IMG/VR virus record: IMGVR_UViG_3300029258_004309
DNA: 64,000 nt
Direction: 5' to 3' (one strand)
Source of the DNA: an uncultured virus (IMG/VR IMGVR_UViG_3300029258_004309)
Taxonomy: Duplodnaviria; Heunggongvirae; Uroviricota; Caudoviricetes
Shown here: positions 40,440 through 55,321 of the stretch, in pieces
Position numbering within the stretch: position 1 is the first letter of the stretch
How the letters are laid out: each line of letters begins with the position of its first letter
Notes under the pieces: model-generated
What the model was told of the DNA's origin: nothing
The model's input: the letters and a program-made list of their open reading frames with translations, nothing else
Database searches by the model: none
Translations under genes and position numbers: made by a program

Positions 40440-40600
40440 CAGTCGTCGTCTCCTTCCTCGTCCTGGTCGTCGTCCTCGTGCCAGGCTGATTTTTTAGGGT
40501 CGAAGCCGGCCTCCTTGATGTCCTCCTCCCGCTCTCCGAAGAGAGAGGTGAAGGACTCCTGCGCGATTCGGGCCATGTCATTCAGCTTGCTGGTGGACAT
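40439..40600 (-). CDS. Small acidic protein
   Basis: MSTSKLNDM...DDDQDEEGDDD; AAGGAG RBS. Confidence 0.5.
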   Translation of the reverse strand: MSTSKLNDMARIAQESFTSLFGEREEDIKEAGFDPKKSAWHEDDDQDEEGDDD

Positions 40601-40757
40601 CTCAATCTCCTTGTCGGAGGGCCACCTCCTGACCCTCCGGTTAGAGGGGAAGGGCGCGTACTTCGTCCCTTCAAGGCTCTTATGCCTGCGATCACGCACT
40701 CCTTGCCGCCGCTTCAGCCTGCGCGGTACAGTTGCGAGCAGTCCAGAGAGGAACAGG

Positions 40758-43700
40758 ATGGCGTACCTCGACCCGCAGGAAGCCTTCGACCACTTCCAGA
40801 AGAAAGTAGTTGAGGGAGTAGAGCAACAGTTCCCGGTGAAGGGAAAGCAGCGCAGCCTTCACCTGGAGCGTGTGGAAGTTCCGGAGCCCCCTAGCCCGGA
40901 CGACATCAAAGCGCAGCAGCAGGCGAAGATCGACGGCAAGAGCTGGGGCGTGCCCGTGTACGCCCATCTGACCCTCAAGGACAACGCCACCGGCAAGATC
41001 GTGGACAAGCGCAAGGTGCGCGTCGCCGAAGTCCCGATGATGACGAAGCGCTACAGCTACATCGTCGGCGGGCAGGAGTACCAAGTCGACAGCCAGTGGC
41101 AGCTCAAGCCGGGGGCGTACACCCGCCGCAAGCAGAACCAGCAGCTCGAGACGCAGTTCAACACGACGGGCCCCGGTTCCAAAACGTTCCACTTGAACTT
41201 CCACCCCGACAAGAAGCAGTTCACGGTACGGTGGAACAAGGCGGATATCCCGGCGTACCCGATCCTCAAGACGCTTGGGGTCACTGACGAGCAGCTCAAG
41301 AAGTCCTGGGGTGAGGACATCCTCGACGCCAACAAGAACGCCCGCGGAGTGGACGGGGCGCTCGCCGCGCTGTACCGCTCGGATCGGGGGCGCAACCCTG
41401 AGAACATCGAGCAGGCCAAAGAGCATCTGTGGGACACACTCCAAGCGTCGAAGATGGACAAGAGTGCCACGCACATGACGCTCGGTCGTCCCTTCGAGCA
41501 TGTGAATGGCGACGCGCTGCACATCGCGTCCAAGCGCCTGCTCGACGTGCAGCGAGGCGGCGGCGAGGATGATCGTGACAGCCTGGTGTTCAAGAGGCTC
41601 CGTACGGCTGGCGACTTCGCCCTCGACAAGATGAACAGCCAGAAGTGGGCCGTGCAGAACAAGATGGCCAAGAAGCTCGACACGGCGCAGAGCGTGCGCG
41701 ACGTCGTGAAGTTCGAGCACTTGAACACGGCGGTCCACAAGACCTTCAGCGAGAATCAGGCGTCGCGCGTTGCCAGCCAGATCAATCCGCTCGAGATGGT
41801 CAGCTCCTCGATGCAGACCACGGTCATGGGACCGGGCGGCATCCAATCCGAGCACGCCGTCATCGACCAGACGAAGTGGATCAACCCTTCGCAGTTCGGC
41901 TTCCTCGACCCGATCAACACCCCCGAGGGCCCGAAGACCGGCGTCACCCTGCGGCTGCCCATGGGCGTGCGCAAGAAGGGGGACGAGCCCCGCATCGCCT
42001 TGACGAACATGCAGACGGGCAAGACCGAGTTCGTCTCCCCGGGCCGAGCCATGCAGGAGAACGTGCTGCTGCCTGACCAGGTCGAGTGGAAGGATGGCAA
42101 GCCAAACCCGATCAATGGCAAGAAGTCGAAGATCTTGGGGCCGGGCAACGAGCTCCAGGTGGGCGACGCCAGCAAGGCGAAGTACGTCATGCGGCACCCC
42201 ACGCAGGTGTTCAACATCACCTCGAACATGATCCCGTATCTGCATTCGACGCAGGGTAACCGTGCAGGCATGGCTTCTCGCCACCTCGAACAGGCGGTGA
42301 GCCTCGAAGGAAGGCAGGCCCCTCTGGTGCAGGTAGCCACGGGCGCGGGCAAGGGCCCGTACGACACGTTCGAGGGAATGGTCGGGGCCATGTCGGGGCA
42401 CCAGTCCCCCATCGACGGGACGGTGGAGAAGGTCACCAAGGATGGCATCCACATCAGGGGCAAGGACGGGGTCAAGCACACCGTTCAGCTGTACAACCAC
42501 TACCCGCTCAACGACGTGAAGAGCACCATGCACTCCGAGCCGCTGGTCAAGCCCGGCGACGTGGTGAAGAAGGGGCAGCACATCGGGGACACGAACTTCA
42601 CGAAGGACGGCAAGCTGGCCCTCGGCACCAACCTGCGAGTCGCGTACGCCCCGCTCAAGGGCTACAACTTCGAGGACGGCGTGGTCATCAGCGAGTCCGC
42701 GGCGAAGGCCATGAGCTCGGTGCACATGACGAAGCACTCGTTGGCGGTCGAGCCGGACATGAACTTCGACCCCAAGAGGTTCCGTGCGTTGCACGCCGGT
42801 ACCTACAAGACCGAACAGCTCGATAAGGTGGGGGAGGATGGCGTGGTCGCCGTTGGTACCCGGGTCAAGCCCGGTGACCCCCTCGTGCTCGCCACGCAGC
42901 CCTTCAAGATCAAGGATCGAACGGGCATCGGCGCGTGGAAGAAGAACATGTCGGGCGTGCATACCGACAAGAGCGTGAAGTGGGACGGTGACTACGAGGG
43001 AGAGGTCGTTGGCGTGCACCGTAAGGGCAAGAGCGTGCAGGTACACGTGCGCACAGTCGAGCCCATGCAGGTGGGCGACAAGCTCAGCGGCCGGTACGGC
43101 AACAAGGGCATCGTCACCAAGATCCTCGACAACAGCCAGATGCCGCGCACCAAGGACGGCAGCCACGTCGAGGTGATGCTCAACCCGGCAGGCATCCCCG
43201 GGCGCATCAACCCGTCGCAGGTCTTCGAGACCGTGGCGGCGAAGGTGGCCGACAAGACGGGCAAGCCCATCGTCGTGCAGAACTTCAAGCCTCACGTGGA
43301 CCAGCTGCAAGAGATCAAGAACTTGGCCAAGGCGCACGGGGTGAGCGACACCGAGGAGCTGTACGACCCAGAGACCAACCAGAGCCTCGGGCAGATCCTC
43401 ACCGGCAAGCAGTACATGCTCAAGTTGGTGCACCAAGTAGAGAAGAAGGGCGCGGTGCGCTCTGGCATGTCGCTGCCCGGCACGGACCCGGAGTCGTACG
43501 ACCGCAACCTGCAACCCACGGGCGGCGGGCATCACGGCGGGCAGAGCATGGGCTCTCTTGGCATGTACGCCATGCTGGCCCACGGGGCCAAGGCCAACAT
43601 CCGAGAGATGCAGACGTACAAGAGCGAGGGCCCAGACCCCGCGCCGGCGGAGGCCAAGAAGTGGAAGAGTCAGCACAACGAGGTGTGGCAAGCCATCCAG

Positions 43701-46700
43701 AACGGCTCCCCTCTTCCCCCTCCGAAGCCCTCGTTCGCCTTCTCGAAGTTCAACGACTACCTGAAGGCGTCGGGCGTCAACATGGAGAAGAACGGGCATC
43801 GGTTCGTGCTGACGCCGATGACCGACAAGCAGATCAGGGACATGAGCGCCGGCAAGCTGCCGAAGCCGGACCGCAAGCTCAGCTACAAGCTCGACAAGGA
43901 CGGCAACCCTATGCCCGTGAAGGGTGGGCTGTTTGACGAGCGCATCACCGGCGGGCACGACGGCAAAAACTGGTCGCACATCGAGCTCGCTGAGCCCATC
44001 CCGAACCCCGTGTTCGAGGCCCCCGTACGCGCGCTCACCGGGCTGACGCAGAAGCAGTTCAACGATGTCATGGCCGGCCGCGCCGGCGTCACCCCTGGCG
44101 GCGCCTTCACGGACAACCCCCGAGCAGGGCTGACTGGCGGGCACGCCATCAAGAGCATGCTCAAGAAGGTGGACGTGCAGGCTGACCTCGAGCGCGCCAA
44201 GGCCGAGCTCAAGAGCACGCCCAAGACCAAGGTCGACGCCACGCTCAAGAAGGTCAAGTACCTCGAGGCGCTCAATCGGACTGGGCACACGGCTGAGGAG
44301 GCGTACATCCTGCACAACCTGCCCGTCATTCCTCCGAAGCTGCGCCCCGTCTCCATCCTTCCGGACGGCAGCCTCAACGAGGCGGACTTGAACGGGTTGT
44401 ACTCGGACTTCGGCCAGCTCAACGCGCAGATGGGTGACCCCGTCATTCGCAACAAGCTGCCGGAGGAGCGTAAGGCAAACCTGCGGGGCGCTTACTACGA
44501 CGGCGTCAAGGCGCTCATGGGCATCGGCATTGCCCACAAGGACCAGAAGCAGAAGGGCCTGCTCAACCAGATCCACGGCCCTGAGCCGAAGAAGGGGTTC
44601 TTCCAGAAGACGCTGATGAATCGCCGGCAGGACCTGACGATGCGCTCGACCATCGTGCCCGAGCCCTCCCTGGGCTTGGATGAGGTGGGCATCCCAGAGC
44701 ACTACGCCATGGACCTGTTCCGTCCCTTCGTCGTCAAGCAGCTGGTGCAGTCCGGGTCGGCTAAGTTCGACCTCGACGCGCACAAGATGATCAAGGCGAA
44801 CGATCCTCTCGCGAAGAAAGCACTCGAGCGGGTGATGGACGACAAGCCGGTGCTACTCAAGCGCGACCCTGCGCTGCACAAGTACAACGTGCAGGGCTTC
44901 AAACCGCGGCTCGTCGAGGGCAAGGCCATCAAGATCCACCCCCTGACGTGCTCGGGCTACAACGCGGACTTCGACGGCGACACCATGAGCGTGTACGTGC
45001 CCATCTCTCGGGAAGCCGAGGCTGAGGCGCACAAGATGATGCCCTCGAACAACCTGTTCAGCGACTCGACGGGTAAGGTGATGTACCAGCCGACGCACGA
45101 GTCCGCGCTCGGTCTGTACAAGCTCACGCGCGTCGACAAGAAGACGAACAAGACCTTCGCAAACCCGGGTGACGCCATCAAGGCCGCGCAGGCCGGCAAG
45201 ATCGGGGTGACGGATCTGGTCAGCATCAAGGGTACTGGGCAGACGACGGCGGGGCGCCTTCTGGTGGCCGCCGCGCTTCCGCAGGACATGCAGAAGCAGA
45301 TCGTCAACGACCACAAGTTCGTGCTCGACAAGAAGGGCCTCAACACGATGCTCACGACGCTCGCCAAGCAGAGCGGCGGACTTCAGGAGGGGCAGCGCAA
45401 CACGTACGGCCAGTACGTCGACAGGCTCAAGGATCTGGGCAACGGCGCCGCGTCGGGCATGGCCCCCGTTTACTTCGACAAGTCCCCGGGCAACAACGTG
45501 CTCGACCCCAAGAAGCAGCAGTTCGTTCGCATGGACGCGCACACGCTCAACCTGAACGACCTGTCGCCTGACAAGGCCACGCGCGACCGCATCCTTGCTG
45601 ACACGCAGAAGAAGGTGGATGCAGTCGGCAAGATGAGCCTCTCGCAGGCCGAGAAGGATCGGCGTGCGGTCGATCTGTGGACGCAGGCCGACAAGACGAT
45701 GGGCATGGCCCACAAGCGCAAGATGATGCAGAAGCCTAACAACCTCGGCATCATGAACATGAGCGGCGGCAAGCCGAACTGGGACCAGTACAAGCAGTTC
45801 ACCCTGGCTCCGATGCTCGTAACCGACACCTCAGGCAAGACCGTGCCCATTCCCGTCGACAAGAGCTTCAGCGAGGGGCAGGACGTCTCGGGCTACTGGG
45901 TCGGCATGTACGGAGCTCGCATGGGCGCCGTGCGCAAGGTGCAGGAGGTGCAGGAGCCAGGCGTCATCACCAAGGCCATGCAGAACACCACGATGGACAA
46001 CCTCATCGTGGACCACGACTGCGGGACGACTGGAGGAGTGTCGCTCAACGTCCACGACCGCTCCATCGAGGGCCGGCACCTTGCCAGCGACTTCAAGCAC
46101 GGCAAGTTGCACGTGCCGGCGGGTACCGTGCTGAGCCCCGACATCATTGGGCAGATCCGCTCTGTGAAGAAGGACGCGAATCTCGTCGTGCGCAGCCCGC
46201 TCAAGTGCCAGCACGAAAAGGGCATGTGCCAGAAGTGCATGGGCATCGGCCCCGACGGCAAACACTATGAGGTGGGCACGAACGTGGGCGTCATGGCGGC
46301 GCACTCGCTGGGGGAGAAGACGACGCAGATGATGCTCAACTCCTTCCACACCGGCGGCGTGGCCACGGGCCGCAAGGACCCGTTCGAGCAGTTCAAGCAG
46401 CTGGTGAACCTGCCGGAGAAGGTACCGAACGAAGCGACCCTCGCCGTGCGTTCGGGCACCATCACCAAGGTCGAGCCCCACAAGCTGGGGGCGTACGTGT
46501 ACATCGATGGGCAGCCCCACTTCGTCGGCCGTGACCGTGGGGGCAAACCGCTGAACGAGTCGCTTCCGGTCCCCGGCTTCAGCTACGTGCCTTGGCAGCC
46601 GCCGAAGGCAGGGATGAAAGTCAAGGCGGGGCAGATCCTGAGCGACCCCAACCGCACGACGATCAACCCTCACCACCTTCATCAGGCCACGGGCAAGATC

Positions 46701-47168
46701 GACGTCGTGCGCAACCACCTGTCCAACGAGATCTACGGGCTGTACAAGGACCACGGCGTGGACCGCAAGCACGTGGACGTGCTCGTGAACTCCATGACGT
46801 CGACGACGAAGGTTGTGGACCCGGGCGGCTCCGACGTGCTGCGCGGCGAGTACCGCAACACCAACTGGGTCAAGAACCAGAACAAGCTGCTTCGGGCTCA
46901 GGGCCAGCCCACCGTGCAGCATGCTCCGATCCTCAAGGGGATCAACGAGATGCCCCTGCACATGCGCGAGGACTGGATGGCCAAGCTCCAGCACCAGAAG
47001 CTCAAGCAGACCATCCTCGAGGCCGCGGCCACTGGCGGGTCCACCAGCCTGCATGGCCCGCACCCCGTGCCGGGCATGGCCTACGGCGCCGAGTTCGGCA
47101 TGACCTCCAAGGACGCGCTGCGCCCGGGCAAGTCCCACCTCAAAGACGTCGAACCCTACCACTACTGA
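40758..47168 (+). CDS. Phage DNA-directed RNA polymerase, beta and beta' fused in one ~2136-aa chain
   Basis: beta motifs: DPINTPEGPKTG, GNRAGM, GYNFEDG, GDKLSGRYGNKG, MLNPAGIPGRIN, YMLKLVH, GGQSMG. beta' motifs: GLFDERITG, HIELAEP, LPVIPPKLRP, LLKRDPALH, catalytic YNADFDGD (NADFDGD at 44961-44981), CQKC, trigger loop AAHSLGEKTTQMMLNSFHTGG. Confidence 0.95.
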   Translation: MAYLDPQEAFDHFQKKVVEGVEQQFPVKGKQRSLHLERVEVPEPPSPDDIKAQQQAKIDGKSWGVPVYAHLTLKDNATGKIVDKRKVRVAEVPMMTKRYSYIVGGQEYQVDSQWQLKPGAYTRRKQNQQLETQFNTTGPGSKTFHLNFHPDKKQFTVRWNKADIPAYPILKTLGVTDEQLKKSWGEDILDANKNARGVDGALAALYRSDRGRNPENIEQAKEHLWDTLQASKMDKSATHMTLGRPFEHVNGDALHIASKRLLDVQRGGGEDDRDSLVFKRLRTAGDFALDKMNSQKWAVQNKMAKKLDTAQSVRDVVKFEHLNTAVHKTFSENQASRVASQINPLEMVSSSMQTTVMGPGGIQSEHAVIDQTKWINPSQFGFLDPINTPEGPKTGVTLRLPMGVRKKGDEPRIALTNMQTGKTEFVSPGRAMQENVLLPDQVEWKDGKPNPINGKKSKILGPGNELQVGDASKAKYVMRHPTQVFNITSNMIPYLHSTQGNRAGMASRHLEQAVSLEGRQAPLVQVATGAGKGPYDTFEGMVGAMSGHQSPIDGTVEKVTKDGIHIRGKDGVKHTVQLYNHYPLNDVKSTMHSEPLVKPGDVVKKGQHIGDTNFTKDGKLALGTNLRVAYAPLKGYNFEDGVVISESAAKAMSSVHMTKHSLAVEPDMNFDPKRFRALHAGTYKTEQLDKVGEDGVVAVGTRVKPGDPLVLATQPFKIKDRTGIGAWKKNMSGVHTDKSVKWDGDYEGEVVGVHRKGKSVQVHVRTVEPMQVGDKLSGRYGNKGIVTKILDNSQMPRTKDGSHVEVMLNPAGIPGRINPSQVFETVAAKVADKTGKPIVVQNFKPHVDQLQEIKNLAKAHGVSDTEELYDPETNQSLGQILTGKQYMLKLVHQVEKKGAVRSGMSLPGTDPESYDRNLQPTGGGHHGGQSMGSLGMYAMLAHGAKANIREMQTYKSEGPDPAPAEAKKWKSQHNEVWQAIQNGSPLPPPKPSFAFSKFNDYLKASGVNMEKNGHRFVLTPMTDKQIRDMSAGKLPKPDRKLSYKLDKDGNPMPVKGGLFDERITGGHDGKNWSHIELAEPIPNPVFEAPVRALTGLTQKQFNDVMAGRAGVTPGGAFTDNPRAGLTGGHAIKSMLKKVDVQADLERAKAELKSTPKTKVDATLKKVKYLEALNRTGHTAEEAYILHNLPVIPPKLRPVSILPDGSLNEADLNGLYSDFGQLNAQMGDPVIRNKLPEERKANLRGAYYDGVKALMGIGIAHKDQKQKGLLNQIHGPEPKKGFFQKTLMNRRQDLTMRSTIVPEPSLGLDEVGIPEHYAMDLFRPFVVKQLVQSGSAKFDLDAHKMIKANDPLAKKALERVMDDKPVLLKRDPALHKYNVQGFKPRLVEGKAIKIHPLTCSGYNADFDGDTMSVYVPISREAEAEAHKMMPSNNLFSDSTGKVMYQPTHESALGLYKLTRVDKKTNKTFANPGDAIKAAQAGKIGVTDLVSIKGTGQTTAGRLLVAAALPQDMQKQIVNDHKFVLDKKGLNTMLTTLAKQSGGLQEGQRNTYGQYVDRLKDLGNGAASGMAPVYFDKSPGNNVLDPKKQQFVRMDAHTLNLNDLSPDKATRDRILADTQKKVDAVGKMSLSQAEKDRRAVDLWTQADKTMGMAHKRKMMQKPNNLGIMNMSGGKPNWDQYKQFTLAPMLVTDTSGKTVPIPVDKSFSEGQDVSGYWVGMYGARMGAVRKVQEVQEPGVITKAMQNTTMDNLIVDHDCGTTGGVSLNVHDRSIEGRHLASDFKHGKLHVPAGTVLSPDIIGQIRSVKKDANLVVRSPLKCQHEKGMCQKCMGIGPDGKHYEVGTNVGVMAAHSLGEKTTQMMLNSFHTGGVATGRKDPFEQFKQLVNLPEKVPNEATLAVRSGTITKVEPHKLGAYVYIDGQPHFVGRDRGGKPLNESLPVPGFSYVPWQPPKAGMKVKAGQILSDPNRTTINPHHLHQATGKIDVVRNHLSNEIYGLYKDHGVDRKHVDVLVNSMTSTTKVVDPGGSDVLRGEYRNTNWVKNQNKLLRAQGQPTVQHAPILKGINEMPLHMREDWMAKLQHQKLKQTILEAAATGGSTSLHGPHPVPGMAYGAEFGMTSKDALRPGKSHLKDVEPYHY

Positions 47169-49518: not shown

Positions 49519-50053
49519 GGTCAAAGTCAAGACCAAGCGCTTCATCGATTGCCCGCACTGCGGCGAGGAAGACATGTGCATCGAGCATCTGTTCGACTTC
49601 CAGTCGGGGCAAGAAGAGCGGATGGCTGGTCCGTGGCACTGCAGGCACTGCGGGCACTCGTTCTTCATCTACGTTCGCTCGGATGGTACGGCGCGGATTG
49701 AAGAGCGGGAGGAGGTCAGCTATCCCATCTTCATCCTGCTCGAGATCCCCCCGCAAGAGCAGTCCATCTTCCTGAAGGTGGCCAGCGACTCTTACGGGCG
49801 CCCAGTGGAAGACGACGACCAGCGGTACTTCTACGAGGAGCACACCTGCCCCGTGAACTACTTCCGCAGCGTGAAGGAGATCAAGGTCGGCGACGATGAC
49901 GACCCTCATGGTCTCGCGCTGTATCGGGGATGGTTCGTCGCCGAGTCGAAAGAAGACCAGCACAAGGCGCGCTGGCTCAAGGACAACGGCAACGAGAAGC
50001 AGCACGAACAACTGCCGGAGAAGACAGAAGGAGGTACAGATGAGAACCGTTGA
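49508..50053 (+). CDS. Zinc-ribbon-containing hypothetical protein
   Basis: CPHCG...CRHCG; YFYEEHTCPVN. Confidence 0.6.
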   Translation: MKSEVKVKTKRFIDCPHCGEEDMCIEHLFDFQSGQEERMAGPWHCRHCGHSFFIYVRSDGTARIEEREEVSYPIFILLEIPPQEQSIFLKVASDSYGRPVEDDDQRYFYEEHTCPVNYFRSVKEIKVGDDDDPHGLALYRGWFVAESKEDQHKARWLKDNGNEKQHEQLPEKTEGGTDENR

Positions 50054-50948
50054 ACCAAGCTACGAGATCTTGGCCATTCCCGAGGGTGAGCAGGCTCTTG
50101 CCTTGCTCGAGCGTATCGGGCGCGTGGCCTACAAGAGCGAGGACAAGATCGACAGTGGGTGGGACTGGTGCGAACGCTGTGACGGGCTCGGCTTCATTGA
50201 TGTCAAGAAGGGTGTGGACGAGATCACTGAAGACTGCCCCGAGTGTGGTGGGACGCGGGGGGCACAGGTGCGCGAGCCTTCCAGTCACAAGTTCGTCCGC
50301 ATGATCCTGAAGGCCGAGCGCAAGGCCAAGCTGGTTGAGATGCTCAAAGCGGCGTACCAGGAGACTTGGCGGGACGAAGAGGCCACTACGTTGGCTCACG
50401 ATGACCTGCGGGAGCTTCTGGCGGACAAGACCGTACGTCTCGTGCTCGAGTACATGGAGCAGAACCCGGCACACGAGAGCGTGATCGAACACTGCTCGGC
50501 TACGGTCCTGTTCACGGGCAACCGCGGCTTCACCCACGAGCTCGTTCGCCACCGGCTGGCAGCGTTCACGCAGGAGTCGACGCGCTACTGCAACTACGCC
50601 AAGGGCAAGTTCGGCAGCGACATCACGGTCTCGCCCGATCGGCGCCCCTTGCTCGCGGAGCTCGACAACGGCAAGACCGCCATCGATGCAGCCACGCACT
50701 GGAAGGCGGCAGTGGACGAGGTCAGCTTCCGGTACATCGAGATGGTCAGGGCGGGCATCCCACCGCAGGTCGCCAGGGATGTGCTGCCCCAGGTCTTGAA
50801 GGCCGACATCGTCATGACGGCCAACTTCAGGGAGTGGAGGCACATCTTCCGGATGCGGGACTCCAAGGCCGCGCACCCGGACATGCAGCAGCTCATGCGG
50901 CCGCTGCACGAGGAGTTCCGAAAGCTCGTCCCCATCATCTTCGACTGA
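50040..50948 (+). CDS. thyX: Flavin-dependent thymidylate synthase with a zinc-finger insertion
   Basis: IGRVAYKS, HESVIEH, THELVRHR...QESTRY, ARDVLP, NFREWRH, AHPDM. Confidence 0.92.
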   Translation: MRTVEPSYEILAIPEGEQALALLERIGRVAYKSEDKIDSGWDWCERCDGLGFIDVKKGVDEITEDCPECGGTRGAQVREPSSHKFVRMILKAERKAKLVEMLKAAYQETWRDEEATTLAHDDLRELLADKTVRLVLEYMEQNPAHESVIEHCSATVLFTGNRGFTHELVRHRLAAFTQESTRYCNYAKGKFGSDITVSPDRRPLLAELDNGKTAIDAATHWKAAVDEVSFRYIEMVRAGIPPQVARDVLPQVLKADIVMTANFREWRHIFRMRDSKAAHPDMQQLMRPLHEEFRKLVPIIFD

Positions 50949-52596: not shown

Positions 52597-52956
52597 GGGG
52601 GTGACTTGGTTTCGACGTGGATGTCGAAGCGTCTTCTGCGTGCAGGCAGAGGCACCGGAACTGCCTTGACCAAACTGGTGCAGCGTAGTTGCCAACGACA
52701 ACAACGCACTCGCCGCCGTCGCTTGATGGTGGCCGTCGACGGGCGAGGTGTCTCGCGTAGCCCTGAGGCGTCAACCACTCGAGGCTGAGCCCTACCGGTG
52801 GTCTCCTGACGGACCTGAAGAAGGGCGAGATTCATTGGGAGATGACTGGCTGGAAAGACAGCCGAACCCCGCTGGGAGGGTAGACCAGCTACGCACGTGA
52901 ACGAGGAAGCCGTGTAGCTTTCGCGGACCGCAGTTCGATTCTGCGCACCTCCACCA
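52597..52956 (+). ncRNA. ssrA: tmRNA (transfer-messenger RNA), tag (A)ANDNNALAAVA*
   Basis: 5' GGGGGTGACTTGGTTTCGAC. 3' T-arm GCAGTTCGATTCTGC and CACCTCCACCA, giving a G3-U alanyl acceptor stem. Resume codon GCC at 52691; TGA at 52724-52726. Confidence 0.93.
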
Positions 52957-52969
52957 ATAGAAAGGGCAC

Positions 52970-53452
52970 ATGATGGAGTACAACGAGGTTGTACCGCTGT
53001 ACGCGGACAAGTTCTTCGCTCGTGTGGGCTCTCCTACTTCGACAGGGTGCCGAGAGTGGCAAGCCGGACTGGACAAGGACGGTTACGGCCACTTTCAGTT
53101 TCGGCACGAAGGCAAGAAGTACAAGGTTCGAGCTCATCGAGCGGCCTACATGTTGGCCGGCAACTGGCTGCCTCCGGGCGCCATTCTCCGACATACCTGC
53201 GACAATCCTGCGTGCGTGAACCCTGAGCACCTTCTGTGGGGTACACACGCTGACAACGTTCAAGACTGCGTGAGTCGGGGAAGGAACGCGTTTGGGGAAG
53301 GTAACGGCAGGCATGTCATGTGTGACGACGAGGTGTTGGAGCTTCGAGCTTCTGCCTCTTCTTTCATCCATGAGCAAGCGCACAAGTACGGTGTCGATGA
53401 GGCGGCCATACGCGCTGCGTTAGCCCAGCGTACTTGGACCCATGTGCCTTGA
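52970..53452 (+). CDS. HNH homing endonuclease
   Basis: CREWQA...GYGHF...RAHRAAY...LRHTCDNPACVNPEHL..GTHADN. Confidence 0.9.
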   Translation: MMEYNEVVPLYADKFFARVGSPTSTGCREWQAGLDKDGYGHFQFRHEGKKYKVRAHRAAYMLAGNWLPPGAILRHTCDNPACVNPEHLLWGTHADNVQDCVSRGRNAFGEGNGRHVMCDDEVLELRASASSFIHEQAHKYGVDEAAIRAALAQRTWTHVP

Positions 53453-53826: not shown

Positions 53827-53899
53827 GAGCCTGATACTCGAAGGAACGAGTGCACGAGTTCTTGTCGTGTTTCTGCAGGTTCGAGTCCTGCCAGGCTCG
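53827..53899 (+). tRNA. Aberrant tRNA-like element (nominal anticodon UCU, Arg)
   Basis: Acceptor GAGCCTG/CAGGCTC; D-arm ACTCG/CGAGT; anticodon arm CACGA-GTTCTTG-TCGTG; T-arm GCAGG-TTCGAGT-CCTGC. Lacks U8, purine 37 and CCA. Confidence 0.55.
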
Positions 53900-53949
53900 C
53901 TGGGTACCTGGGTCCCCCTCCGTCGACGGAGGACAGGCCCGGGGTCGGA

Positions 53950-54082: not shown

Positions 54083-54161
54083 AGCGGGATAGAGGAGTCT
54101 GGTCGTCCTCGCAGGGCTCATAACTCTGAGATCGGTGGTTCGAACCCACCTCCCGCAACCA
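54083..54161 (+). tRNA. tRNA-Met(CAU), initiator-like
   Basis: Cloverleaf; 1:72 mismatch (A/A); CAGGG-CTCATAA-CTCTG anticodon arm; GGTTCGAACC; encoded CCA. Confidence 0.88.
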
Positions 54162-54162
54162 G

Positions 54163-54354
54163 ATGAAAGCTCGAGCAGTAGAGGTGGTGATCACGGTGCT
54201 GTGCTTGGTGGCCGCCGGCGCGGTCGCCTACTTCATGCTTCGGCCTGGTCCATGTGACGGCGTGAAGTGCCCCGAGGGCACCTACCCCATGGAGCAAGGC
54301 GCCGGACTGTTCACCTCGAGGTGCTCGTGCATCGGGCATCCGAAGGATCCGTAG
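54163..54354 (+). CDS. Small membrane-anchored Cys-rich protein
   Basis: 63 aa; N-terminal TM followed by 4 Cys. Confidence 0.5.
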   Translation: MKARAVEVVITVLCLVAAGAVAYFMLRPGPCDGVKCPEGTYPMEQGAGLFTSRCSCIGHPKDP

Positions 54355-54418
54355 CTCAATTGGTGAGAGCCCCCGGCTCATAACCGGGCTGTTGGCGGTT
54401 CGAACCCGCCCGGATCTA
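54345..54418 (+). tRNA. tRNA with CAU anticodon (Ile2/lysidine-type or elongator Met)
   Basis: GGATCCG/CGGATCT acceptor; TAGCTCAATTGG D-arm; CCCGG-CTCATAA-CCGGG; GGTTCGAACC; no encoded CCA. Confidence 0.88.
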
Positions 54419-54420
54419 CT

Positions 54421-54847
54421 GAGTTCTGTCAGGAGGTAGGCCTAGAAGCAGCCATCCTTCAAAGAGTCGCCAATGGCAGCAGCCGGAGTACCAGCGATGG
54501 ACCGCCGGCCCGAGAGGCTTCGGCCTCGAAGCGTCCCACCAGACGTTTGCACCACCAGGTTAGTCCCAGGTGGGAGTCTTAGAGCTCATTGGGGAATGTG
54601 GGCGTAGAGCCATCGGGAAGCGAATGTGGGAGGTAAACCGCGTCAGCCTTTTCAAAGCCTGGTAACAGGTGGAGTTCCTGAGTCCTGACGTGGGGGAAGT
54701 ACCATCAGTAGCACGGCCGGTTTTGCCCGCACGGACGAGAGGAACTGCGGGTTTGACTTGAAGGGATCAGAATGAGCCCTGTGCCCCTTCGGGGATGACC
54801 GGTACAGCCCTAAGAGCGTTTGGCGTAGCAGCACACTGTCAGAACTC
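54421..54847 (+). ncRNA. Large structured RNA containing 23S rRNA GTPase-associated-centre and sarcin-ricin-loop-like elements
   Basis: Closing stem GAGTTCTG/CAGAACTC. H43-like CAGGAGGTAGGCCTAGAAGCAGCCATCCTTCAAAGAGT (54430-54467). H44-like GCGTAGCAGCACACTG (54823-54838). SRL-like CCCGCA-CGGACGAGAGGAAC-TGCGGG (54726-54751). Confidence 0.8.
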
Positions 54848-54952
54848 GCAACTCAGGGACGGCGGCATGGTGTCTGGGGAGACCCCAGGCCGGCCCGCTC
54901 GGGGGTTCATGAAACACCGCCGTCCTCTCTTTTTAGCCGCCAGGAGCAGAAG

Positions 54953-55321
54953 ATGCGTTTGAAAACAAAGCTGAAGAAGATCTTGAGCACCCGTCTCACC
55001 GACGTGACGACGCGCGCGGCCAAGCGACTTCCGACCCGCATGCTCGAGGGCATCGTGTGGGCCGGCTACTATGTGCCGCGCACGCTCAAGCTGCCCATCG
55101 TCGGGTCGCTGCACACCGCCGCGTTCTTCGAGTACGGAGATCGGCTCGAGTCAGAGTCCCCCCTGCCGGCTGGGCGCAAGAGCGCGTACGAGCGCAAGAC
55201 CTCGAATCAGGCTGCGGGGTGCAGGGGCGTCAAAGGCCGGACCACGGTCATCGAGATGAGCGAGCCCTTGGAGAGCTACCCGATCCCGCGACATCGCCCG
55301 GCTACGGAGATCGACGCATGA
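54953..55321 (+). CDS. Hypothetical basic protein
   Basis: AGGAG RBS; 122 aa. Confidence 0.5.
   Translation: MRLKTKLKKILSTRLTDVTTRAAKRLPTRMLEGIVWAGYYVPRTLKLPIVGSLHTAAFFEYGDRLESESPLPAGRKSAYERKTSNQAAGCRGVKGRTTVIEMSEPLESYPIPRHRPATEIDA

Follow-up and report, generated by a model that had tools for sequence, protein, structure and literature searches.

We describe a structured non-coding RNA (ncRNA) of about 427 nt encoded in the window, a 64,000-nt stretch of DNA from the uncultured caudoviricete virus IMGVR_UViG_3300029258_004309. The RNA follows a tRNA-Met gene, its ends reproduce the GTPase-associated centre (GAC; H42 tip, H43 and H44) of bacterial 23S ribosomal RNA (rRNA), and its interior carries a hairpin that resembles the sarcin–ricin loop (SRL, helix H95). 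Its homology, its fold, its membership of a large phage RNA family and its place in a tRNA array are documented below. A phage RNA that copies the GAC, and a GAC copy joined to an SRL copy, are apparently new relative to Rfam 15 and the open-access literature: on 54415–54855, at E values up to 10, no Rfam 15 family matches the RNA except for a local hit to the large-subunit (LSU) rRNA model, with ROOL and GOLLD both unmatched, and the open-access literature yielded no description of a phage RNA copying the GAC or of a joint GAC and SRL copy.

An rRNA-like core closed by its own helix

In a DNA search around the nearest genome, 38 nt of the window (54430–54467) matched 42 of 201 genomes at 89–95% identity over 36–38 nt; two of the 42 matched places were examined, and both lie within 23S (LSU) rRNA genes. 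The Rfam model LSU_rRNA_bacteria, run on 54415–54855, aligns 54428–54477 to model positions 1092–1149 (18.6 bits, E 0.001). These positions cover the tip of H42, H43 and H44, which we take to be the GAC, the binding place of uL11 and thiostrepton. The remainder of the stretch has no significant similarity to two complete 23S genes beyond the 38 nt. Because only these 38 nt significantly match 23S, the RNA is not a captured rRNA gene, and its 18.6 bits are far short of the gathering threshold of 50 bits for a true 23S gene or fragment.

Around this match the window carries each of the elements by which we recognise the wider family (Table 1): an H43-like hairpin, whose loop and inner stem read GGCYUAGAAGCAGCC and whose outer pairs covary; an H44-like strand, UUUGGCGUARNAGCACAC, downstream of a variable insert; a closing helix, P1, between the 5′ flank and a strand past the H44-like part; and phage tRNA genes on the same strand, with a tRNA-Met ending at 54419 and a transfer-messenger RNA (tmRNA) and two further tRNAs upstream. 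The junction CAAAGAGU between the H43-like and H44-like parts is nearly invariant across the family.

We aligned the window RNA with seven full-length relatives (alignment A6) and, separately, 25 short family members (alignment A3). For A6, RNAalifold gives a consensus of 71 pairs, and compensatory changes occur in 43 of these; the paired share of cells is 90.9%, compared with 72.3% in shuffles, and 0 of 500 shuffles reached as high a value, for a consensus structure that was derived from the very alignment on which it was scored. P1, which in the window consists of 11 Watson–Crick pairs and one U-U mismatch, has both-sided changes in 12 of 13 pairs in A6 and in 8 of 8 in A3. The short members also show both-sided changes in all 6 pairs of the helix that closes the insert and covariation in the two outer H43 pairs, while the inner H43 stem and H44 (TTTGGCGTARNAGCACAC) are invariant. 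In A3 as a whole, 84.8% of cells are paired versus 63.6% in shuffles, and covariation is 0.530 versus 0.143, again with 0 of 500 shuffles as high. Within the long insert of the window RNA, the SRL-like hairpin forms one arm of a three-way junction, with P5 and P6 as the others.

Several further resemblances to rRNA were considered and set aside. The idea that other conserved insert blocks (for example, GUAGAACCGCAGGGA) copy additional 23S helices was dropped, as these blocks have no significant similarity to 23S. Weak blastn matches of the insert to six bacterial places (E 0.0007–0.01 per genome) correspond to no Rfam family and were taken as chance in view of the 201 genomes searched. The notion that the H43-like stem tracks the host's own 23S was likewise abandoned; pf16 (see below) differs from its host's 23S. 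As a separate observation, a group I intron (52.7 bits) is present in the 23S rRNA gene of G159, a genome related to the nearest one (L093, 1971–2671).

Diverged relatives of the window were mapped as a DNA contig (X5; 51 differences and 11 gaps over 701 nt) and a 405-nt contig from an RNA library (X8), which covers 54435–54839 with 50 differences and 10 gaps. Because RNA libraries can contain DNA, the latter is at most a hint of expression and no proof of transcription. X8 gives no cover on 54852–55000 and almost none before 54420; its contigs come from one study and are uninformative on transcript ends.

A family of phage RNAs in tRNA arrays

The H43-like 18-mer GGCYTAGAAGCAGCCATC matches at least 118 IMG/VR contigs. 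We retrieved 80 loci through this 18-mer, 69 of them distinct, as a sample of the family; at most 57 nt of any of the 69 can be aligned to the 23S reference. In 55 of the 69, TTTGGCGTARNAGCACAC, corresponding to the H44 loop and 3′ strand, follows 35–345 nt downstream and is itself followed by a strand complementary to the 5′ flank. Across these 55 measured loci the insert ranges from 35 to 345 nt by the script's count, the window's being the longest.

The association with tRNA genes is pervasive. tRNA genes lie within 1.5 kb in 51 of the 69 distinct loci, every one of them on the same strand as the RNA, and in 21 of the 69 a same-strand tRNA ends only 15–40 nt before the 18-mer. Cultured phages carry the RNA as well: it lies unannotated inside the tRNA arrays of Pseudomonas phage pf16, between tRNA-Asn and tRNA-Pro, and of Aeromonas phage 4_4572, and several jumbo phages match the H43-like part.

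The inserts of these RNAs appear modular. In pf16 (L246, 1190–1390), 4_4572 (L247, 1205–1490), L102, L104, L111, L118 and L139 the insert ends in a conserved CACCCC-GNNA-YGGUAAGG block instead of an SRL-like arm. One phage has two copies of the H43-like 18-mer 318 nt apart (L140, 1501–1836), possibly tandem RNAs of this family, and in another a full ROOL RNA (328 bits; L114, 2416–2999) shares a tRNA array with a family member.

The nearest virus record (G002) lacks the region, protein searches for close relatives returned the same phage only, and a blastn and nhmmer comparison of 54420–54950 with 79 phage loci related through their RNA polymerase gave only a weak match to the terminator hairpin.

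An SRL-like arm conserved in a subfamily

The earlier note on this DNA had pointed to an SRL-like hairpin at 54726–54751 on the plus strand, and its sequence and place are exactly as described there: CCCGCA-CGGA-C-GAGA-G-GAAC-TGCGGG, to which an outer wobble pair, G54725-U54752, can be added. Its GAGA tetraloop (54737–54740) is closed by the canonical C54736-G54741 pair. As a bare sequence the hairpin is at chance level. The window holds one copy of its 9-mer ACGAGAGGA against 0.85 expected, with at least one copy in 53 of 100 shuffles, and the canonical SRL 14-mer has 14 matches with up to 3 mismatches against 6.2 expected. The isolated hairpin folds into the stem at −15.4 kcal/mol, an energy unremarkable by itself because its z score is −1.62 and 12 of 200 shuffles are equally stable. 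The hairpin is more than chance because the same arm stands at the same place in the same RNA of other phages.

We found 16 distinct members with a recognisable SRL-like arm, the window included, and two with a degenerate arm; in this subfamily the arm lies 70–100 nt upstream of the H44-like strand. Three members with long inserts that were found through the 18-mer alone (L131, L162 and L149) have a corresponding hairpin that reads UAGUAC-loop-GGAR. A scan for AGTAC....GGA 65–95 nt before an H44-like strand, in which the four loop bases were free, returned 10 loci, 8 of them distinct and all family members, with the loops GAGA (3), GAAA (2), GGGA (1), CAGA (1) and AGAA (1). A metagenome scan built on the stem of the window's arm, which placed no demand on the 5′ strand, also gave 10 loci. 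One of these (L234) is the window's own phage, with 100% identity; the unconstrained slot is CACAGT four times, CGCAGT twice (a single phage type), CAAATT twice, CACTGT once and CACGG once, the last in the window's phage. A third scan, anchored on the 3′ junction with the arm unconstrained, gave four distinct loci that truly belong to the family: the window itself, the L225 type (AGUACGAGAGGAA), L242 with the arm C-UGGC-UAGGA-GGAAU, and L244 with C-AAC-UAAAC-GGAAC. Two of these three scans fixed part of the arm, and the unbiased samples are small, namely three arms from the 18-mer set and four members from the 3′-junction set.

Most members read AGUA-C-GNRA-G-GAA, and the exact rRNA 12-mer AGUACGAGAGGA occurs in L222, L224, L225, L229, L232 and L237. 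GAGA is kept in 8 of 10 SRL-arm loci in which the two middle loop bases were left free. Across the window and nine homologous arms, 97.5% of the cells of the arm stem are paired, six of its seven pairs show both-sided changes, and covariation is 0.961 compared with 0.295 in shuffles, none of 500 of which was as high. The earlier note had named lack of conservation in homologous RNAs as grounds for rejecting the hairpin; it is conserved, with covariation. Judged by these comparisons, the arm is a conserved module of the subfamily whose consensus is the SRL sequence, and GAGA appears far commoner than a generic GNRA module would predict.

A search of four SRL-arm loci against Rfam at E values up to 10 gave no LSU match for the arms. 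The sole match of a scan of genome contigs (L239) lacks family features, resembles coding DNA and was taken as chance, as was L240 from the 3′-junction scan; a fuzzy SRL match in L121 may be chance. The H43-like loop is off the rRNA consensus in L220, L224, L226, L231, L233, L236 and L237 (UUGGAAGC, UUAAGAGC, UUGAAGGC, UUAGAGGC), and in L229 both GAC-like parts are degenerate next to a canonical SRL arm.

The window's arm is a shortened variant

The sarcin–ricin motif is an asymmetric internal loop, 5′-AGUA opposite 5′-GAA, with a bulged G and a trans U-A pair. The window departs from it, with CGGA opposite GAAC: position, stem, closing pair, GAGA loop and GGAAC strand of the subfamily are all present, and the AGUA strand is replaced by GG-A. 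The earlier note had described an altered bulged-G strand, with CGGA in place of AGUA and the rest of the motif intact. The tetraloop, C-G closing pair and GGAAC strand are indeed intact, but CGGA proves not to be a base-for-base replacement: all nine aligned homologous arms have AGUA, and the window is one nucleotide shorter, reading C-GG-A-C against C-AGUA-C. The place of the gap differs between two MAFFT alignments, falling opposite the U in one and opposite the first A of AGUA in the other; in the latter, a G aligned with that U is common to the window and L242, which of the full-length relatives found is the nearest (72% over 248 nt). The internal loop of the window is symmetric, 5 × 5 with the closing pair counted: C-C, G-A, G-A, A-G and then C-G. 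Because the stem fixes the register and the loop is symmetric, there is no room for a bulged G.

The comparison of CGGA with AGUA among homologues, which the earlier note had recommended, finds AGUA in the majority: in all three arms of L131, L162 and L149, in 6 of the 10 loci with the slot left free, and in 1 of the 4 members of the 3′-junction set. The same strand varies elsewhere too, with AUUA in L231 and L233 and UGUA in L236. Among the 40 of 73 differences and 12 of 19 indels shown for the diverged relatives, none is listed in 54703–54760, so that a shared CGGAC is not claimable from these.

Proposed function and alternatives

PMC8661411 presents the GAC and SRL together as the factor-binding site at which EF-G and EF-Tu dock, and reports that Tre23, a type VI secretion system (T6SS) toxin, ADP-ribosylates H44. 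PMC2896532 describes α-sarcin as reading both the GAGA loop and the bulged G2655, and places the GAC, the SRL, L11 and EF-G in a single interaction network. Against this background, we see an even chance that the free-standing phage RNA, co-transcribed with tRNAs, serves as an off-ribosome mimic or decoy of the docking site of translational GTPases. The RNA would rebuild both elements of that site, the GAC (H42 tip, H43 and H44) and, in the subfamily, the SRL, and would bind off-ribosome proteins that recognise these rRNA sites, titrating or diverting them. Molecular mimicry is suggested because nucleotides conserved in rRNA are kept, and a role as mimic or decoy is reasonable because the SRL look-alike sits in an RNA that copies the other half of the docking site. 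Phage tRNA arrays have been proposed to act in counter-defence, replacing or shielding translation components that the host attacks. Because the RNA sits among phage tRNAs, we speculate that its ligands would be ribosome-inactivating toxins that act on the GAC or SRL by modification or cleavage, with the RNA acting as a protective decoy.

A bolder form of the proposal, which we hold more tentatively and consider less probable than its failure, is a natural 'ribosome in pieces'. Here one RNA with GAC and SRL copies, possibly in ribosome-like geometry, would take up translation factors or stringent factors or activate them wrongly, or else it would soak up immune toxins that inactivate ribosomes before these shut down the infected cell, and the window's shortened strand would be a natural specificity variant in which recognition of the loop is kept and recognition of the S-turn is lost.

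Several observations weigh against a mimic or decoy of the complete docking site. Most family members lack the SRL arm, and inserts go down to 35 nt; because of this, the core function would need only the GAC-like part, with the arm as an add-on. Within the SRL-arm clade the H43-like loop varies (UUGGAAGC, UUAAGAGC, UUGAAGGC) and is degenerate in L229. None of 36 records of phages with a related fused RNA polymerase carries the 18-mer at up to 2 mismatches (21 of these records are at least 90% complete), and because it is absent there the RNA is dispensable and patchily distributed. The arm of the window lacks the asymmetry for a bulged G, and its S-turn is probably gone. In L242 and L244 neither the tetraloop nor the closing pair survives, but the stem, with a compensatory G-C to A-U change, and the GGAA strand do; this suggests that, in the window's sub-lineage, constraint on the S-turn and the loop is weaker than on the stem. 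The window arm is either altered in specificity or decaying. The earlier note had suggested that the variant may be bound or modified by only some SRL-recognising proteins, for example as a non-cleavable decoy. The decoy reading gains from the discovery that the look-alike belongs to an RNA that also copies the GAC, but the change behind it is a deletion and not a four-base swap, and a finely tuned, selectively recognised non-cleavable decoy is somewhat disfavoured because the erosion in L242 and L244 looks more like relaxed constraint.

Other roles would use the same rRNA-like parts differently. The segments of the family that are invariant in A3 and most conserved, the H43 inner stem, the junction and the H44 loop, make up the tertiary fold by which uL11 recognises the GAC, and the A1067-equivalent loop position, of more weight in contacts with factors and thiopeptides than in the binding of uL11, varies in some members. 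Both points would suit a ribonucleoprotein that recruits host uL11, perhaps with uL6 or the uL10 stalk, either to make a scaffold for some other activity or to titrate free uL11 and so, for example, blunt the activation of stringent factors, with no toxin involved. We think this unlikely: it leaves unexplained why the subfamily has added an SRL copy with the exact rRNA dodecamer, and sequence conservation is lacking in the closing helix, to which uL10 would bind. Synthetic oligonucleotides of the GAC and SRL regions bind EF-G, and the prevalence of GAGA where the middle loop bases are free would also be expected of a sponge or activator of translational GTPases or stringent factors (EF-G, EF-Tu, IF2, RF3 and RelA-type) that re-tunes translation or (p)ppGpp. 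The joint presence of GAC and SRL, the factor-binding site according to PMC8661411 and PMC2896532, points the same way. Yet a sponge for factors in general looks costly to phages, which depend on host translation; most of the family has no SRL arm to offer; and in the window the arm no longer has the bulged-G geometry that matters for EF-G function (G2655; PMC2896532). We rate such a sponge as distinctly unlikely.

The arm could also be a structural module, an S-turn with a GNRA loop, that serves tertiary packing of the insert, its likeness to H95 being convergent and drifting in this phage. Consistent with this, the loops vary where they are free to (GAGA, GAAA, GGGA, CAGA, AGAA, CAGC), as does the 5′ strand (AGUA, AUUA, UGUA, GG-A); L242 and L244 retain the stem and GGAA strand without the loop, and, taken as bare sequence, the 9-mer of the window stands at the level of chance. 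Convergence nonetheless has to contend with the recurrence of an exact 12-nt rRNA sequence in at least 6 distinct members, with the strong over-representation of GAGA (3 of 8 distinct loops when all four bases are free) and with the location of the arm in an RNA that copies the SRL's partner site on the ribosome, and we find it more improbable still. Finally, the 38 nt that are up to 95% identical to bacterial 23S rRNA, and the gene that starts about 100 nt downstream at 54953, could bring to mind a stray remnant of 23S rRNA DNA from the host, or a leader that controls that gene in cis. Such an origin is very improbable and disfavoured, given that the significant match to 23S stops at 38 nt and the ends of the RNA pair with covariation, that the element occurs in tRNA arrays of many unrelated phages without a constant downstream gene, and that a terminator-like hairpin separates the RNA from the next gene.

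Relation to known RNAs

The RNA is almost identical to the GAC of bacterial 23S rRNA in the H43 loop and inner stem, in the junction and in the H44 loop. Unlike the 23S GAC, it is free-standing, encoded by a phage and closed by its own covarying helix, and in its family H43 and H44 are split by an insert of 35–345 nt. The 3′ strand of its H44 reads GCACAC, in contrast to GCUCAC in the LSU model consensus. The window arm has the GAGA tetraloop, C-G closing pair, GGAAC 3′ strand and stable stem of the SRL, and homologous arms of other phages have the exact AGUACGAGAGGA; it differs from H95 in an unrelated stem sequence, in a 5′ strand that is one nucleotide shorter and in its placement in the three-way junction P5/arm/P6 of a phage RNA.

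Leaders of ribosomal-protein mRNAs, such as the L10 leader, mimic rRNA binding sites and act in cis in bacterial ribosomal-protein operons. The phage RNA similarly imitates a protein-binding site of rRNA, but it stands alone in a tRNA array; we saw no ribosomal-protein gene in the window and no match to an Rfam leader on 54415–54855. The decanucleotide that signal recognition particle (SRP; 4.5S) RNA shares with the H43 region has been reported to bind EF-G, as do synthetic 'ribosome-in-pieces' oligonucleotides of the SRL and thiostrepton regions. These isolated rRNA copies are precedents for GTPase binding off the ribosome; unlike the SRP decanucleotide, a 10-nt coincidence, and unlike the synthetic oligonucleotides, the phage RNA is a natural molecule that carries both full modules. 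ROOL and GOLLD resemble it as large structured phage ncRNAs among tRNA genes, whereas neither is described as copying functional sites of rRNA in the accessible part of PMC12286853.

Features and genomic neighbourhood

Table 1. Parts of the RNA and neighbouring RNA features in the window.
Feature	Position	Strand	Remarks
Structured ncRNA (putative phage GAC/SRL-mimic RNA), ~427 nt	54421–54847	+	without credible open reading frame (ORF); aligned full-length with 7 other members
P1 5′ strand (H42-like closing helix)	54421–54432	+	pairs with 54836–54847
H43-like hairpin	54433–54459	+	stem 54433–54441 with 54451–54459; loop CUAGAAGCA at 54442–54450
Junction CAAAGAGU (H43/H44 junction of the GAC)	54460–54467	+	aligned to LSU model consensus
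Insert between H43-like and H44-like parts, 348 nt	54468–54815	+	RNAalifold-mapped coordinates; helices covary
P2 (insert helix)	54468–54470 with 54816–54818		
P3 (insert helix)	54473–54476 with 54610–54613		
P4 (insert helix)	54614–54617 with 54808–54811		
Insert hairpin	54657–54661 with 54666–54670		
P5 (insert helix)	54716–54722 with 54797–54803		
SRL-like arm	54725–54752	+	stem 54725–54731 with 54746–54752
Arm 5′ strand, C-GG-A	54732–54735		
Arm closing pair	C54736-G54741		
Arm GAGA loop	54737–54740		
Arm 3′ strand, GAAC	54742–54745		
P6 (insert helix)	54757–54760 with 54790–54793		
H44-like strand, UUUGGCGUAGCAGCACAC region	54819–54836	+	stem 54821–54824 with 54831–54835; loop GUAGCA
P1 3′ strand	54836–54847	+	RNAalifold consensus of alignment A6
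tmRNA	52597–52956		tag ANDNNALAAVA
tRNA-Arg	53827–53900		
tRNA-Met (CAT), first	54083–54161		
tRNA-Met (CAT), second	54345–54419	+	ARAGORN, Rfam; 3′ end 2 nt before the closing helix of the RNA
Long G+C-rich hairpin followed by UCUCUUUUU (U run)	54856–54936	+	fold; simple terminator scan silent, loop too long

The second tRNA-Met is followed by about 530 nt without a credible ORF, up to the next gene. The hairpin and U run within this interval are likely the intrinsic terminator of the tRNA/ncRNA transcript, to judge from their predicted fold. Part of this hairpin (54864–54892) is 90–93% identical over 28–29 nt to minus-strand sequences 6–7 kb upstream of the RNA polymerase gene in other loci (L079/L080 and L059/L061), and the match may represent a shared regulatory hairpin. 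The two CAT-anticodon tRNAs are separated by 180 nt; the first of them, 79 nt long, has an unusual D arm and a lower score (48.6 bits). An HNH homing-endonuclease ORF (52970–53452) begins 14 nt past the tmRNA, as if it had homed beside the tmRNA gene.

The proteins encoded in the window include ThyX, an HNH endonuclease, a tail-fibre chaperone domain, dCMP deaminase, a RecA-like protein and DnaB-like and SNF2-like helicases. A single ORF of 2217 aa (40515–47168) fuses RNA polymerase β and β′; it has 612 relatives at E ≤ 0.001 among candidates of 1219–3880 aa, which mark a large clade of phages of about 190 kb, and some of these carry an additional PF14528 domain, probably an intein-type insertion. 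The ThyX ORF (49896–50948) has an N-terminal extension of about 145 aa before its Thy1 domain (residues 147–346), which may be an over-long ORF call or an extra domain.

Implications

A virus-encoded RNA copy of a functional centre of the ribosome would, if the proposal is true, be a new kind of host–virus interface at the translation apparatus, and it would say what some of the unexplained 'dark' RNA of phage tRNA arrays does. Large as it is, and with cultured phages among its carriers (pf16, 4_4572 and several jumbo phages), the family makes the question directly testable. The subfamily also offers natural variants of the most conserved loop of rRNA, with the strands AGUA, AUUA, UGUA and GG-A and the loops GAGA, GAAA, GGGA and CAGA. 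These arm variants could reveal which features the ligand reads, and they may serve as baits for proteins that recognise the GAC or the SRL.

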